A stretch of DNA of 64,000 nt from Vicugna vicugna (lineage: Eukaryota), in the NCBI GenBank assembly GCA_013265495.1, contig MU057801.1:186001-250000 (forward strand). Reading direction: 5' to 3'. A program made the position numbers and the translations under genes. The number at the start of each line of letters is the position of its first letter. The first letter of the stretch is position 1. Positions 4,118 through 63,307 of the stretch are shown here, piece by piece. Under the pieces are notes generated by a model, which saw only the letters and a list, made by a program, of their open reading frames with translations, made no database searches and was not told the DNA's origin.

Positions 4118-4139
4118 CAGAAAGCCAGGCGGCTTTTCT

Positions 4140-4820
4140 TTTCTTTCTTTTTTTAAAATTGAAGTAGAGTTGATTTACAATGTTGTGTTAGTTTCTGGTG
4201 TACAGCAGGATGATTCAGTTATACACATATACATATGTGTATATCTTCAATTTAGGTTATTGCAGGCTATTGAATATAGTTCCCTGTCCTGTACAGTAGG
4301 ACCTTGTTGTTTATCTGTTTTATATATGGTAGTGTATATCTGCTAATCCCAAACTCCTAATTTATCCCTCCTCCCACTTCCCTTGTGGTAACCATAAGTT
4401 TCTTTTCTATGTCTGTGAGTCTATTTATGTTTTGTAAGTAAATTCATTTATGTCATTTTTTTAGATTCCTCCTATAACTGATATCATGAGACATTTTGTC
4501 TTTCTCTGTCTGACTTACTTCGCTTAGCGTGATGGTCTCCAGGTCCATCTATGTTGCTGCAAATGGCATTCTTTCTTTTTTTATGACTGAGTAGTATTCT
4601 GTTGTATAAATATACTACATCTCCTTTATCCAGTCATCTGTCCATGTCTTGGCTCTTGTAAATAGTGCTGCTATGAACAATGAGGCGCATGTATCCTTTT
4701 GAATTGGAGTTTTCTCCAGATGTATGCCCCGGCCCGGCATTGGTGGTATAGTGGTTAGCATAGCTGCCTTCCAGATGTATGCCCAGAAGTGGGATTGCTG
4801 GGTAGGGTAACTCTGTTTTC
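4140..4820 (-). mobile_element. 5'-truncated L1 3' end, interrupted by a tRNA-half insertion
   Basis: T-rich tail at the left end; reverse complement matches the L1 copies at 24615-25428 and 44630-46276. Confidence 0.9.
4730..4773 (+). pseudogene. Tailless retrocopy of the 5' half of tRNA-Gly(TCC) with a 7-nt 5' extension
   Basis: GCATTGGTGGTATAGTGGTTAGCATAGCTGCCTTCCA (4737-4773) matches tRNA-Gly-TCC up to the anticodon loop; flanked by the direct repeat TCCAGATGTATGCCC (4715-4729 and 4770-4784). Confidence 0.85.
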
Positions 4821-5329
4821 AGTCAGGTGGCTTTTCAATTAATCAAACCAAGTAAACCACAGGTAGCACAGGAGAAAAACATAACAGGCCCGAATCAGTA
4901 ATCCTGGAGCCTTTTTCAAAGGCACACACTCCCCATTCAACAGGAGCAGAGGGGACTCGTCAGTGGTCTTTGCCGGCTCGCTGGGTGGCAGGTGCACATG
5001 GGGTGCTCATGGTGTAGATCTCAGCCAGTCCTCCCAGCAGCTCCATCAGGAAGCTGTGAACGGCCCCACTTCACAGATGAGAAGGCAGAGGCTCATCTTC
5101 TCTCACGGCCGCAAGGTAGAAAACCACTCATCTGGACTTCACATCTGCCCAAGGGCCACGGGGACCCTGCGTGGTCTGTCTGCTCTATGAGTAGTTTGCA
5201 CAGAGGAATGGAGAGGAGTGGCTGGGTACTCCTGGGGCCGCCCGGGGTCACACCTCAACTCTGCTGAGAAGGGCGGATACACTTCCTGCTGAGAGGCAGA
5301 AGCCAGTGGTGGTTCAGGGTCAGGGCTCA

Positions 5330-8626: not shown

Positions 8627-8780
8627 GGGGAGGGTATAGCTCAGTGGTAGAGCATGTGCTTAGCATGCACAAGGTCCTGGGTTCAATCCCCAGAACCTCC
8701 ATTAGTAAATAAATAAATAAATAAGCCTAATTACCTACCCCCAAAAAAACTATTAAAAAAAGATAAAGACAAAAAAGAAT
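8627..8780 (+). mobile_element. tRNA-Ala-derived SINE (vic-1-like)
   Basis: ggggagggtatagctcagtggtagagc...ggttcaatccccag head, (TAAA)n linker, A-rich tail, TSD core gaaaagcag. Confidence 0.9.
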
Positions 8781-13900: not shown

Positions 13901-16900
13901 AGATGAAAACAGCATTGATTTTCTTTTCTGTTTAAAAGGTATATCTGCCCGTCGTTCAAGTAACCCTGCCGTGGAGCAAGATCCGGGCAGGGTGCTTTCA
14001 GCTGATTGTTGGTCGGGTTTCCTTCCTGTGTCTGCCTGACCCCGACATGTCTTCACAGAGAATCCCCTCCTTATGCACCGGTTAGGAATTTTATCTCAGG
14101 AATCACTGGGGTGTTTGTCACTGTGGTGTGCAGGCTTGAAGAGCAGAAATAACTGGGCTCTTGTGCGAGCTTGTCTCCTTCAAGGGGAAGAGATTGGAGC
14201 CATTGCCGCGTGCATCCTGACTGCCCCTGTCCGTGTGTCCCTGTCGGAGCCCAGATAGACCCCGAGTGGTGAATTGTTGCATAATTTATTTTTCTCCAGT
14301 GAGTTTAGTCTGGGCTTGAGTAAAAAGGTCCACGGCAATGGGGTCCCCCCAGGGAATGCATCATCCTGGGATTTTCCCTGGAGGAAACTTCAATGCACTG
14401 TCACCCCTGGAGCGTGTCCCTTAGTTCCCTAGGTCCTCAGGGCTTGGCTCTCTTCCAGAGGATCGGTCCTCCCGGGCCCCGAGGTCTCCATTCCGCCCTG
14501 TAGGGAGGACACTGACTCGGAATCCTTGATGACTATCTTTCCATTCTGTGATTGAGCCTCTCCATCCTTTTACCTCTCTCCCGCCCCCACCCCTTTAATC
14601 TCCCTTCATTAATATTCACAACACTGGGGCCAGACCTTCTGGGCCCCTAGACCCTGCCTGGAAACCTCCCCCAGGTCCCCACCCCTGCCCTGGGACTTCA
14701 GGGGGCAGGGCAGGGAAGCACGGGGCTTTGTCCAGGAACCAAGAGGAGCGCACATTCAACTCCGTGCTGCGGTCTTCCTTTCTCCCACTGCATTATTATT
14801 ACCATTTTTTATGCATCTGAGGTTTTTTTGAGTTGCAATCATGTTTAATTCTAGTCAGAAGTAGGTTGACCTCTTGGGGCTTTGGGGAAAGTGCATGCCA
14901 GTTTCACTCAGAAAATTACCGCTCTGTTGCTGACAGCGTGTACTTGGGACAGACATATGCTTACATCATGTGGCCTGAGGATCGAGACGGCCACTTCCTG
15001 CCACCTCTTCCAGCCACCTCTTCCAGCGTTTCCCCAGAGTCCAGCACTGCCCTGGGCGTGATGGTGACAGATGGGCAGGTGGCTGTTGTCACGTCTGGGA
15101 ATCAGAGAGAAAGCAAGGACCCGGGGGAGGGTAGAGCTCAGTGGTAGAGCCCACGCTTAGCGAGCACAAGGTCCTGGGTTCATCTCTGCTCCGCCGCCCT
15201 CCCAGCCTTGCAGCCTGCCTGCTGCCCAAAGCGCTCTTTGGTTTGCGGGACCGCAGCCCACGTCTGTTTTCTGCTGTTTAAGTGGGTAGTTTCATTTACG
15301 GAAAAGGCGTCATAGAAAACTTTTTACGTGCACAGCCCTTATGGCAGGGTTGTAGTTTTGCTGAAATTTAAACCTTCCCCTAATTACATCCACGTGTTTC
15401 AAAGTGTGGACAGTTTTGTGCTTCCAGCATTTTGAGTTTCCCCTTAGTGGCCTGAACTGTGAGCCATGGAGTCTAAAATTTGACGTCCAAAGGAAACAGC
15501 TGCCTCCCAGACTCGGCCGTCACTTTACCTCCAAATCCCCTCTCCAGTACTGACACCTCCACAAGCCTCTCTTGAATACTGAAGTCCACATCAAGTCCTC
15601 CTGAAATCCTCTGTGTAGCATTTAAATTCCATACCGCTGAGTTTTCACATTTAATCATCTGATTTGCTCATGAGGCAAATATTTAGTACAAAATCAGCTA
15701 CTCAAAACTCTGTACTACATACAGTGGGGGCTGCCTTGGGAACTTACACCCAGGTGGTGGAGCCGGTAAACTGTTCAAATGACTCTTAACAAAAAGCCCA
15801 GGGGGTGGATATAGCTCAGTGTTGGAGTGCACGCTTAGCATGCATGAGATCCTGGGTTCAACCCCCAGTACCTCCATCAAAAAAAAAAAGCCTGACATGT
15901 GATGTGTTCATGGAAAGTGCACCGCTCAGTAAAAACTAGCCCCCAGATTTCCACCAGGGACCTGGAAACCACAAAAGCATGTTTCTTTCTCGTGCGTCCA
16001 GTGCGATTCTCGGGGCAGGGGTGGAGGGCATTCGGGTTGTGGACAACTAGATGGTGGACAACTTCCCACCTTGAACGTTGTCACTTGTTGACCAGACAGA
16101 GCTCTCTGGGGTCTTGCTTTGGCAGCTAAATTCTTTGGCCGTGAAAGTGATACTTGCACACAAAACTCATTAAACCACAATTAGCTTCTGGTCCCTGCAT
16201 GAATAAACCACCAATGTTTGTTTGCTTTAATACATTTATAAACTTCGGTAGAGCAAAGACTCAGATTCTGCTTCTTTCAAACCCACCCCCTGCTCTGTAC
16301 CTGGCTTCAGCTCACAGTAGAAATTCAGGAGGTATTTGGACAAAGAATGTCTCAGTTGACAACATGCTTTTGCCCAATTAGGGAATTTTTAATAAACATT
16401 TGGGGCGCCCCCTAGTGGTTCTCCAGTGTGGAGTTTACAAGTTCCACCTAAAAACTTGTACTTTTTATAGTTTAGGACTAAACTGTGAACACGTTTATAT
16501 GCCTGGTCAGAGTGTTGTAAGTCTTGTAAACACTCCTCCAAACATAAGAAATCATTCCTAAATGCACTGTCAAAGGCTCACCACTTGCTTTTCCCTGTAA
16601 ATTATTTTTTCCTAAGTGTCGTGTTAGTCCCCAGCCAAGGAAGGGGAGGGAGGAAATCAGGAGGGGGAAGTGATTTTGGAGACCCGCCAGTATTGTGAGC
16701 GCTTGCAGATTGTGTCCGTCTTTCAAAGTATATGGTTGACTTAAAATTGAGAAAATATTAGTCCCTAAAAGAAAAGCCTCAAAGCAAGTATTGCCGGGAG
16801 GCATGTGGACTCCTGTTCCTCAAAGAAAGGGTTCTGGCCTTGGAGCAATGGACCCCGCAGTCCTCCGCCACCTCCTCACCTCCGTCCGCCCCCAACACCC

Positions 16901-24614: not shown

Positions 24615-25428
24615 AGCCAACAGGCACATGAAAAGATGCTCAACATCGCTAATTATTAGAGAAATGCAAATCAGTACCACAAGGAGCCATCACCTCACAC
24701 CAGTCAGAACGGCCATCGTCAAAAAGTCTACAGATAATAAACACTGGAGAGGGTGTGGAGAAAAAGGCACCCTCCTGCACTGCTGGTGGGAATGCAGTTT
24801 GGTGCAGCCACTACGGAGGACAGTAGAGGCTCTTTAAAAAACTGAAAATTGAGTTACCCTATGATCTAGCAATCCCACTCCTGAGCATATACCTGGAGAA
24901 AACTCTAATTCAAGAAGTTACATGCACCCCAATGTTCATAGCAGCACTATTTACAACAGCCAAAACATGGAGGCAACCTAAATGTCCATCAGCAGATGAG
25001 TGGATAAAGAAGTTGTGTGTATATTATATGTATATGTATTCCAATATATGTGTTCCATTGTGTACGATGGAATACTACTCAGCCATAGAAAAGAATAAAA
25101 TAGTGCCACTTGCAGCAACATGAATGGACCTAGAGATGATCATACTGAGTGAAGTAAGTCAGACAGAGAAAGGCAAATATCATATGATATCACTTACATG
25201 TGGAATCTAAAAAATGACACAAATGAACTTATTTACTAAACAGAAACAGACTCACAGACAGAAAATAAACTTACAGTTACCAGAGGGGGAAGGGGCAGAG
25301 AGGGAGAAATTGGAGTTTGGGGTTAGAAGATACTAACTACTATATATAAAATAGATAAACAAGGTCCTACAGTAGAGCACAGGGAACTGTATTCAATAGC
25401 TTGTGATGGACTATAATGGGAAAAAAAT
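24615..25428 (+). mobile_element. 5'-truncated L1 (end of ORF2 plus 3' UTR)
   Basis: Translates to L1 ORF2 C-terminal motifs [29 protein letters not shown] and MFIAALFT. Confidence 0.92.
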
Positions 25429-56000: not shown

Positions 56001-59000
56001 AAGTAGCAGCACAGCCAGCAGGGCTGAGGGCTCGAACCCCGCCTCCATCATCCCCCGCCCTGAGACCCCATCCGCTGCGTCGGCGGCGCCCTCTGTAGAA
56101 CACAGCGGTCCCTGCATCGCAGGGCTGTCGTGGGAATGAAATGACAGTACCCGCGCGGTGCTCAGAATGGAGCCTGGCACACAGTGAGCACTGTAAATGC
56201 TTTTGTCAAACTAGTAACATCAAAATGAGCAGTCTTGACCAAGACCTTAAACCTGCAGAGGGAAGGGGAGCCTTGCGTCCCGCAGCGGTCGTGTTCTGTG
56301 AAGTCACGCCGCCACCGCCAGCGGAGAGCACCGAACCACCGCCGCAGGGAGGCGGGGCTCACACGTGCACGTCGCGCATGGGCTGTGGTCCTCAATCCTA
56401 AAGACAGCTAATGCTGGTAGCTTCTACTTCATTTTATAAAAGAGAAAACAAGCTTCAGAAGTCTTCAGTGACTTGCCCGGGGCCACCCACTACGCAGCCC
56501 CCGCCAACTGGCCCCAGAGCCCACGCGTCCTGCTCTGCGCTGCACCACCCCTCCCGTCCCCCGCCCAGGTAACCTCTGCCTGAGAGCAGACAAGACAGCA
56601 GGTGGTCGTTTTGTTTGTCCTCAACTGGGACCATGTGCCTCGGCTGATTCAAGTTTTCTGTCACTCTGAGCTTGTGTGCCAACAACTGCCAATGGGACGC
56701 CAGCACTGATTTTGGGATTACAAATAAGTTTTAGCAGGTAGAAGTCACAGATTATAAAGTCAACCACTTCCACTGCTGCAAGCGCTGTCCCGTGTCATCA
56801 TCCCCTCCTCACAGCCAGCCCGCAGTGGGGGTTTTCACTCCGTCCTTAAAGACGAGGACATCAGGGCACAGGCAGTCACTCCCGACGCGCTGAGGTCCCA
56901 GGCAGTCATCAGCAAACTTCTGGACAGACTCCGGTAAGAGTGCTAATAACATACGTCCCAGAAAAAAGCAGGCCTGGCTGCAGTGGCCAGGGCCCCAGCA
57001 GGTCATCTTCCTCAAGGAACCACAGTGTTAACGCCAAAATACAAACAAACCCAGTCTCCCTGGAAGAGACCCAACTGCCCAGCCCACAGATTTACCCCGC
57101 CCAACCTGAGTCCTAGAACACACGCACGCAGTTCAGGAAGCAGGTGAAATGCACCCCTGACTTCTAGGCCAACATCAAGGACCAGGCGTCGCAGCCAGGA
57201 CCACCCCTCCTCCGAGAACAGCACCCAGGACCCTACGGGCGCCACGCAGCCCTCGTCCAAAGGATATATCGCTCGTAGATGGCACGGGCGCGGTCCACCT
57301 CCTTGTACCGCAGCTCGAAGTTGATGTAGGAGTGCCAGGCCTGCTCCTCCGGCTGCCACTCCATCCAGCGCTCGAACACCTGCCGGGCGCCGGCAACGTT
57401 CCCCAGCATCTCCTCCATGTACGTGTACTTGTACCTTCAACAAACCACCCGCAACGCCCTCCCTGTCAAGATGACCTCAGGAAGAGACGGCCTTTGGCAG
57501 CTTCTAGCTCTGAACTTGTTAACCGTGAAGTAGGTTTAGGGCTGTATCTCCTCTGAAGGTTAAGTCAACACGCTTTCTTTTTAAAATACAAATTCGAAAA
57601 AGATGAATCATTGGAAAATAGGGTACTTTTTTCTCAAAAACTACTTAGTTCCACAAGAAGTTTCTCATGCATAAAAGTTGCAACCAAAATTTTAGGGTTT
57701 TTTTTAAATTTTAGTTTTTTAAATTTTTATTTATGTATTTAATTTTGGGGAAGGGAGGTAATTAGGTTATTTATTTACTCATCTTTAATGGAGGTGCTGG
57801 GGATTGAACCCAGGACCTTGTGCATGCTAGGCACACACTCTGCCACTGAGCTGTACCCTCCCCCATTAATTTTAGTTTTGATGACACAGCTATTACACAT
57901 TGTGATTATGGCTTAACAGACTAAAAGACATTAAAAAGTACTGATAGTATGTTTAAAGACAAACTTGGATATAAGGTTAAAAATATACGATTACAACTAT
58001 GTACATAAAATAAATACACAAAAGCACAGAACTTCATAGTCCTCAAAAGGCCATTTCGTTAGGTCAGAAACTTACCAGAACTGGTTGACCCGAGGCAGAG
58101 TCGTGATGGCCCGGTCCCAGATATTTCGGGCGTGGTTCACCTGGCGATTCTTCATTTCCATTTCTGCATATTTCAGCCAGAGTGTGATATTCCGATAGTC
58201 CACATCCAAAGCACGTTCGTAGATGGATCGAGCCCTTGAGATGCAAGATTTGGAGGGTGTTAAAAGCAGTACGTGCATGCAACACACGTGGCCAATTGTG
58301 TGAAACCGTCTGCGGAGCTCTGCTACTGTCAGCGTTGCCTGTGAGCCGGTTCTGAGTGTGGGGAGGGGAAAAGATGCCACGTTCTCAGGAATCTTACAAA
58401 GACTTAGGGAAGGACTGACATGCACGTCATTGCAATGCGGTGTGACCAACGTTACAGGCAAGACCTACATCAAGTAGAGGGGAAGAAATAAAAATGTCTG
58501 GTGGCAAAGACTAAGCAGTAGGTGAGAACTTGAGGAAAGTTCCAGAGGCCAAGGTGCGTGGGGAGGGTGCTCGCGCCAGGGAGAGAACAGCCAAGGGCCA
58601 GGGGAGGACACAGGCTGTGTTCAGGGAGGCACAGCGAGGGCCAGGTGCACTGGGAGGACGCAGGGAGGCTGGACAACAGGAAGGGTCAGGTCGTGGTTTT
58701 CATCTTGTTGGCCACTGGGTCTCAGTGGATCAATTTTTATTAAAAAAAAAAAATCCCAATATAGAGAAAGCAGATGAACCTGCACCTCTGGCTGTGGAGT
58801 GGGTGCGGGTGGGGAAGCCCAGCCGCAGGGCCTCCAGCCCACCCCCTACCCAGGACAGTCCTCCCACAGTGGTCCCTGAGGTCCCCGAAGGAGCCTTGGG
58901 GTTCCACGGAACAAACTGAGAATTGTCACCTGAGGCTCTTACTCGAGCCTTTTCCATGTTTCTGTATCTGGTGACTTACGAATCTCCACACACACCATCC

Positions 59001-63164: not shown

Positions 63165-63307
63165 TGGTGTTTGTCATTTGTTTGTTTTGTTTTTTGGAGG
63201 GAGGCAATTAGGTTCATTTATTTATTTTTAATGGAGGTACTGGGGATTGAACCCAGGACCTTGTGTGTGCTAAGCACACACTCTATCACTGAGTTATACC
63301 TTCCCCC
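63165..63307 (-). mobile_element. tRNA-Ala-derived SINE (vic-1-like)
   Basis: Reverse-complement SINE; TSD core gagatgttat. Confidence 0.88.

Follow-up and report, generated by a model that had tools for sequence, protein, structure and literature searches.

Retroposed 3'-truncated tRNAs were described by Noll et al. 2015 (Genome Biol Evol, PMC5322556) as 'processed or unprocessed' sequences that lack an A-tail and are truncated in loops, and they belong to the tailless retropseudogenes, a class whose discovery those authors credit to Schmitz, Churakov, Zischler and Brosius 2004 (Genome Res 14:1911). In Noll et al. 2015 (PMC5322556) the methods require target site duplications (TSDs) of 8–35 nt at an identity of at least 70%, the target is complementary to the terminal 2–18 nt of the RNA and has the consensus TT/WAAAAWW, unprocessed tRNAs are among the templates, and target-primed reverse transcription by L1 is proposed, with internal priming as the favoured route. 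A preprint (bioRxiv 10.1101/2025.02.02.635956) describes tRNA-half/LINE-1 chimeras in which tRNA positions 1–37 lie antisense to the adjacent L1 and near the L1 5' end, and it favours pre-cut tRNA halves as templates. Our own literature search on anticodon-loop tRNA retropseudogenes with LINE1 returned no paper.

Within the 64,000-nucleotide stretch of DNA that was analysed (the window), we examined an insert made of a tRNA 5' part and a short leader that is flanked by a perfect duplication and sits inside an L1 fragment (Table 1). The sequence reads ...gagttttc TCCAGATGTATGCCC cggcccg GCATTGG...GCTGCCTTCCA gatgtatgccc agaagtggg..., and self-comparison of the window finds the identical 15-mer TCCAGATGTATGCCC on both sides of the insert (15/15, spacing 55). 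The tRNA part covers the 5' strand of the acceptor, the D arm, the 5' strand of the anticodon stem and the loop as far as the anticodon TCC and A37, and it terminates ...GCCTTCCA. The insert ends at A37 of the 72-nt tRNA, inside the anticodon loop, with 35 nt absent. No A-run or oligo(A) stands between the tRNA part and the right TSD copy; instead the two overlap by 4 nt, TCCA (4770–4773) being common to the tRNA end and to the right repeat or target site. The initial annotation had proposed a tailless tRNA-Gly-TCC 5' part with a 7-nt leader, a 15-bp TSD and a TCCA overlap, and every one of these elements was recovered where it had been placed.

Table 1. Features of the tRNA-Gly(TCC) insert and its host L1 (positions in the window).
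Feature	Position	Strand	Basis
Host L1 TSD, left copy, AGCCAGGCGGCTTTTC	4123..4138	.	14/16 vs 4821-4836
Host L1 fragment, 3' portion, L1 sense on - strand	4139..4714	-	Sequence and aligned paralogs
Left TSD copy of tRNA insertion, 15 bp, L1 sequence	4715..4729	.	15/15 vs 4770-4784
5' extension CGGCCCG, 7 nt, read as pre-tRNA 5' leader	4730..4736	+	Match to the upstream of the C6656 gene
tRNA-Gly(TCC) positions 1-37	4737..4773	+	97% identity to the L010 gene as query
Right TSD copy, 15 bp, beginning with TCCA, with which the tRNA part ends (4 nt shared)	4770..4784	.	Microhomology
Host L1 remainder, 36 nt, to the 5' truncation point	4785..4820	-	Paralog alignment; L1 end at 4820
Host L1 TSD, right copy, AGTCAGGTGGCTTTTC, then AA	4821..4836	.	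14/16 vs left copy

The assignment to tRNA-Gly-TCC, which had been made from the sequence alone, holds against the genome's own genes. The insert is of the body type with T at position 20, and its 37-mer agrees at 36/37 positions with the tRNA-Gly(tcc) gene of the same body type (L010), the sole difference being G3->A. Searched at up to 2 mismatches, the 37-mer has 66 places in the genome (2.03 Gb), against 0 for the reversed control, so the match is not a chance one. ARAGORN called no tRNA at 4737, and Rfam at E<=10 on 4600–4900 gave no tRNA match and only a noise hit to sR18 (E 9.5); silence of both is expected for half a tRNA and is not evidence against a retrocopy. A functional tRNA gene would form a complete cloverleaf found by tRNA finders, and here the 3' half is missing.

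The tRNA insertion is nested in, and later than, an older 5'-truncated L1 fragment. This host L1 spans 4139–4820, with its A-tail visible in antisense as a poly-T or T-rich run at ~4139–4155, and it has its own 16-bp TSD (14/16) that ends TTTTC and then AA. A genome search with window 4560–4830 gave 5036 first-look candidates, and among the best 40, which were scored, the paralogs are 73–85% identical. These paralogous L1 copies in the same genome supply the view of the empty site: none of the 29 examined carries the 44-nt insert, the homolog of the 15-mer is single-copy in 29/29, and 25/29 pass straight from that homolog into the homolog of 4785–4801, the other 4 ending or deviating there. 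The insert is therefore not L1 sequence, and the possibility that its 44 nt are part of the L1 subfamily consensus, which would have undone the initial reading, is contradicted. Within the window itself, the sister L1 (sense on the + strand) has one diverged copy of the site at ~24878–24905, 12/15 to the 15-mer by eye, in agreement with the claim that the site there is single-copy. The two nested TSDs (inner 15/15, outer 14/16) show that the tRNA part entered an L1 already in place, in an event of its own; the inner duplication has no mismatch, and at 2 of the 44 inserted positions the candidate source discussed below has another base. Twenty sequencing runs share sequence with window 4640–5240 (19 from organism A and 1 from organism B, word share 0.84), a measure that is uninformative on the insert.

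We also observed that 4730–4746 (CGGCCCGGCATTGGTGG, the leader and the tRNA 5' end) agrees at 10/17 positions with 4785–4801 (AGAAGTGGGATTGCTGG, the L1 to the right of the TSD), and for this reason BLAST extended the alignments of L1 paralogs by 17 nt, into the insert. The resemblance is probably due to chance, although it could reflect homology that was used at the 5' junction.

To place the insert among other copies, we searched the genome with both ends of the tRNA. The 5' 28-mer occurs at 138 places with at most 2 mismatches, and the 3' 35-mer at only 5, all of them full-length genes (reversed controls 0 in both searches); copies of the 3' half only were thus not found anywhere in the genome at <=2 mismatches with the 35-mer. 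Flanks were read at 101 places (for the 28-mer search, the 100 places listed out of 138), of which 99 are independent after dropping L006 and L013, which duplicate L003 with identical flanks. Among these 99 independent places there are 5 full genes and 94 5' parts that end in, or just before, the anticodon loop. The tRNA identity of the 94 parts stops at linear positions 31–39, a TSD was found by script at 91 of them (mostly 14–18 bp), and 83 of these 91 stop at positions 36–39, so that Gly-TCC halves with the same end region, whose presence elsewhere in the genome the initial annotation had left to a scan, are many. The TSD overlaps the tRNA end by at least 2 nt in 77/91 copies.

The targets reconstructed as they were before insertion and set on tRNA coordinates carry C at C36 in 80/90 copies and A at A37 in 82/91, with T at U34 in 52/88, A at A38 in 59/91 and A at the next position in 62/91, after which they are A-rich. 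In the unselected target positions 42–49, taken as a control, C occurs in 10–21 of 69–91 copies (11–27%), and from these counts it follows that the class does require the nicked target to pair with the loop. With its 15-bp TSD, its overlap of 4 nt and its end at A37 the insert is typical of these copies. The exception is its target, in which no A-rich sequence follows CA. The CpG at C2-G3 has been lost in 22/91 sister copies (16 GCA, 5 GTG, 1 GTA); decay after insertion therefore suffices to account for G3->A in the insert, and this is the best read of that difference.

Two observations on particular copies stand beside this survey. The places L003, L006 and L013 (G000:C381, C2580 and C9118) hold one Gly-TCC half with identical flanks (25 nt upstream, 60 nt downstream), which could result from either a recent segmental duplication or assembly redundancy. 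At L137 (G000:C4540:4441988-4442260) there is a full-length Gly-TCC copy, at ~positions 101–173 and ~90% identical, which has a short 5' extension, ends in the 3' trailer gtttt and lies between the repeats aaaatgtaaaaacca / aaaatttaaaaaacca. Here a primary transcript seems to have been retrocopied in its entirety and without a tail, the only full-length case among the places examined.

For comparison we turned to genes of Glu-CTC and Asp-GTC that neighbour Gly-TCC genes. A BLAST search with the 72-nt Glu-CTC gene gave 65 candidates, and the best 40 of them, which were scored, comprise 13 full or nearly full copies, 4 that cover positions 8–72, 22 5' parts ending at 36–39 and one gene cut by a contig end. 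All 19 of the 22 halves that were fetched (L139–L157) stop within the anticodon loop, at CTCTC/CTCTCA or little beyond, and have TSD-like repeats, and 7/19 carry the extension GACGC, which is the exact upstream of the Glu-CTC gene in L034. The Glu-CTC halves show the same pattern as the Gly-TCC ones, and the phenomenon is therefore not specific to Gly-TCC. For Asp-GTC there were 13 matches, only 2 of them halves. The yield of halves differs strongly between these clustered tRNAs, with 121 first-look candidates to 5 genes for Gly-TCC, 65 for Glu-CTC and 13 matches for Asp-GTC. A tRNA call of ARAGORN in the window, 'tRNA-Ala(agc)' at 8629–8701, was dropped as a control tRNA because it appears to be a copy of a tRNA-derived SINE and no tRNA gene: it runs into ...ccattagtaaataaataaataaat, that is, into a (TAAA)n tail. 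Further ARAGORN calls in the window lie at 15805–15876, 57789–57860 and 63232–63303.

The insert can be set apart from two other kinds of tRNA-derived sequence. Like tRNA-derived SINEs such as the copy at 8629–8701, it is tRNA-related sequence spread by LINE machinery; SINEs, however, have both Pol III boxes, a body and a repeat tail and are self-propagating, whereas the insert is half a tRNA, tailless and non-propagating. The 5' tRNA halves or tiRNAs have their 3' end in the anticodon loop and start at the mature +1 position. They share the 3' extent of the insert, but the insert starts 7 nt upstream of +1 and does not correspond to a tiRNA in this respect. With tailless retropseudogenes, on the other hand, it has in common a small-RNA origin, a complete 5' end, a 3' truncation (at least 10 nt) in a single-stranded loop, the lack of oligo(A), flanking TSDs (15/15 in the insert) and a target complementary to the end of the RNA. 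It differs from the class as given by Noll et al. 2015 (PMC5322556) in having no A-rich TT/WAAAAWW target and in a leader of 7 nt, which is longer than the 5-nt 5' overhang that their 'perfect' filter allows. The tRNA-half/LINE-1 chimeras of bioRxiv 10.1101/2025.02.02.635956 resemble it in tRNA extent, orientation and position near the L1 5' end; unlike them, the insert is bounded by a TSD that consists of L1 sequence, a second TSD bounds the L1, and the two insertions are nested and sequential. The insert is thus a tailless retropseudogene and a further, ordinary case of a described class that has ~100 or more Gly-TCC copies in this genome, so the rarity and interest implied by the initial annotation were overrated.

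The sequences between the left TSD and G1 inform on the templates. At least 3 extra nt are present there in 54/91 copies, and several of these extensions equal the upstream sequences of extant genes: GAG/ACGAG extensions match the upstreams of L020 and L038, and CAT/AT extensions match that of L051. Extensions ending in GCA occur in 20/91 copies (19 of them exactly (T)GTGCA/TGCA/AGTGCA) and match positions -7..-2 upstream of gene L045 (ctgtgcg), the copies having A and the gene G at -1. The commonest leader in the halves is thus GTGCA where gene L045 (G000:C7228) has GTGCG, and -1 differs in every copy (~20, e.g. L027, L036, L048, L059 and L103); this mismatch could mean either that the master gene has since changed or that it is absent from the assembly.

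For the insert, a genome-wide search with the leader and the first 18 tRNA nt at <=2 mismatches found five places, namely the insert itself (0 mismatches), the L010 gene (1 mismatch, CGGCTCG) and three retrocopies with GGCGCG-type leaders (2 each). No gene with exactly CGGCCCG upstream was found by this search of leader plus tRNA start, and the agreement with CGGCTCG upstream of L010 is 6/7. By our own arithmetic the chance of a match of at least 6/7 is 22/16384 per gene. L010 (G000:C6656, called tRNA-Gly(tcc) by ARAGORN) is also the only one of the 5 full-length genes with T at position 20, and, judged from leader and body type, it is the most likely source of the insert (G000:C6656:4730470-4730541(-)). 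Six other copies with the T20 body carry GGCGCG-type leaders, none of which matches a gene in the assembly, and because such leaders have no extant gene, the true source could be a lost or unassembled paralog. The leader search that the initial annotation had proposed thus came out in its favour: a gene of the same body type agrees at 6/7, and none agrees exactly. Two other candidates were set aside as sources. Upstream of L045 the string CGGCCCG is present 9 nt further out, but L045 as the source would imply that 9 nt were skipped, and its body type differs. The full-length match at C4540 (90%) is no gene but a retrocopy, and it has the other body type.

We read window 4730–4773, with a probability of about 0.78, as a dead-on-arrival tailless retropseudogene, that is, an L1-mediated copy of a 5'-unprocessed pre-tRNA-Gly(TCC) primed in the anticodon loop. 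The template would be a tRNA-Gly(TCC) transcript with a 6–7-nt 5' leader that RNase P had not yet cut, since the 6–7-nt leader is retained, and the L1 machinery would have inserted it by target-primed reverse transcription into the older 5'-truncated L1. A nick on the L1-sense strand between window 4714 and 4715 would free an end ...TCTGGA-3', which could pair with UCCA (U34 C35 C36 A37) of the single-stranded anticodon loop; cDNA would then be made from the loop to the 5' end of the transcript, with no A-tail and nothing 3' of the loop copied, and the 15-bp duplication would result from a further nick at a distance of 15 bp and the fill-in after it. Counting against this course of events, the implied nick on the primed strand, 5'-TCTGGA/GAAAAC-3', is not the canonical TTTT/AA of the L1 endonuclease, and the target lacks the A-run after CA that most sister copies have. 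The target, TTTTC/TCCAGATG, is T-rich upstream with no A-run and so departs from the L1 target consensus TT/WAAAAWW, which is a consensus and not a strict requirement. As for later activity, the B box sits in the 3' half of a tRNA, and the insert is without that half; it is therefore expected not to be transcribed by Pol III and to have no function, and should be a neutral fossil.

The main question for this reading is whether the RNA was whole when it was copied or had been cut in the loop beforehand. Had an RNase (angiogenin, RNase T2 or RNase L) produced a 5' tRNA half, L1 could have annealed at its 3' end and copied it with no internal priming. In germ cells, Gly and Glu tRNAs belong to the principal sources of 5' halves, which speaks for such a template, as does the fact that the prolific sources here are Gly-TCC (94 halves among 99 independent places) and Glu-CTC (22 halves among the best 40 of 65), compared with 2 of 13 matches for Asp-GTC. 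A half derived from mature cytoplasmic tRNA begins at +1, however, and it follows that leader-bearing templates are unprocessed nuclear pre-tRNAs; the insert has its 7-nt leader, and the extra 5' nt of the 54/91 sister copies match gene upstreams. The confinement of the 3' 35-mer to the 5 genes at <=2 mismatches also counts against pre-cut halves. The end point at 36–38 does coincide with the loop cleavage sites invoked for tRNA 1–37 with LINE-1 in bioRxiv 10.1101/2025.02.02.635956, which favours pre-cut halves as templates, whereas the insert has a leader; Noll et al. 2015 (PMC5322556) report no A-tailed truncated copies and no matching truncated RNAs for 5S and U2 and argue from this for internal priming. 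Taken together, these points make a pre-cut half unlikely, and a possible variant of it is a leader-bearing pre-tRNA cut in the nucleus, which would fit the present data as well as internal priming on a full-length pre-tRNA does. The leader on the insert, together with the gene-matching leaders of its sister copies, favours a 5'-unprocessed pre-tRNA as template, so that where the initial annotation had offered a 5' tRNA half or an internally primed pre-tRNA, the latter is preferred and a mature half is disfavoured.

The weight given to the leader depends on its being templated. Extra bases are common at the 5' junctions of L1-mediated insertions, and the 7 bases might be untemplated or acquired by template switching, for example from CCCGGCC of the tRNA T-arm, the template being a 5'-processed RNA: the junction string gCCCCGGCCcg contains CCCGGCC, which is also found near the 3' end of the gene. 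Such an origin is quite improbable, as the 7 nt directly precede G1 and agree in register, at 6/7, with the sequence upstream of the same-type gene, a T-arm origin would leave two bases (CG) unexplained, and the leaders of sister copies are found repeatedly, in insertions that arose independently, and have the sequence that lies upstream of genes. For the outermost C (4730) an untemplated addition is nevertheless quite plausible, because a purine start at -6 is more usual for Pol III. A single chimeric insertion of tRNA half and L1 by twin priming or template switching, in place of two successive events, would fit the antisense position of the tRNA part, which no more than 36 nt and the TSD copy separate from the L1 5' truncation point, an arrangement that recalls the 21 human tRNA/LINE-1 chimeras, mostly half-length (1–37) and antisense, reported in bioRxiv 10.1101/2025.02.02.635956. 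It would, however, join the tRNA straight to the L1 5' junction and leave a single TSD that encloses both, whereas here L1 of the same orientation flanks the tRNA part on both sides, 15 nt of L1 are perfectly duplicated, and another TSD, 16 bp of host sequence (14/16), encloses the L1. Template switching on the first strand would moreover give the tRNA and the L1 the same orientation, not opposite ones, and the sister copies likewise appear to stand alone, judged by a loop end in 94/94 and a TSD at 91. The two nested TSDs already contradict a single-event chimera, and we regard it as very improbable indeed.

Copying of a 5'-unprocessed pre-tRNA primed in its loop may have been repeated often enough to build a family. 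We tentatively suggest that the Gly-TCC halves, and less so the Glu-CTC halves, could be a lineage-amplified, SINE-like 'tailless' family that stems from two or three master tRNA genes, with L1 capturing nascent leader-bearing transcripts in the nucleus and the loop YCA (35–37) acting as a specific internal priming site; this is a possible rather than a likely account. If it is true, the fossil leaders would record the Pol III start sites of the master genes, the assembly would lack the masters with GTGCA and GGCGCG leaders in their former state, and the leader-bearing majority would settle the dispute over internal priming and pre-cut halves, and would do so against mature tRNA halves.

With its perfect TSD and known empty-site sequence, the locus is a clean presence/absence marker for the dating and phylogeny of close relatives. 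The insert and its ~90 sister copies bear on a disagreement in print, between the internal priming of Noll et al. 2015 (PMC5322556) and the pre-cut halves of bioRxiv 10.1101/2025.02.02.635956, and since most copies begin upstream of the mature 5' end, their templates were unprocessed nuclear pre-tRNAs. The leader ties the retrocopy to a specific tRNA gene and suggests at which position of that gene Pol III starts.
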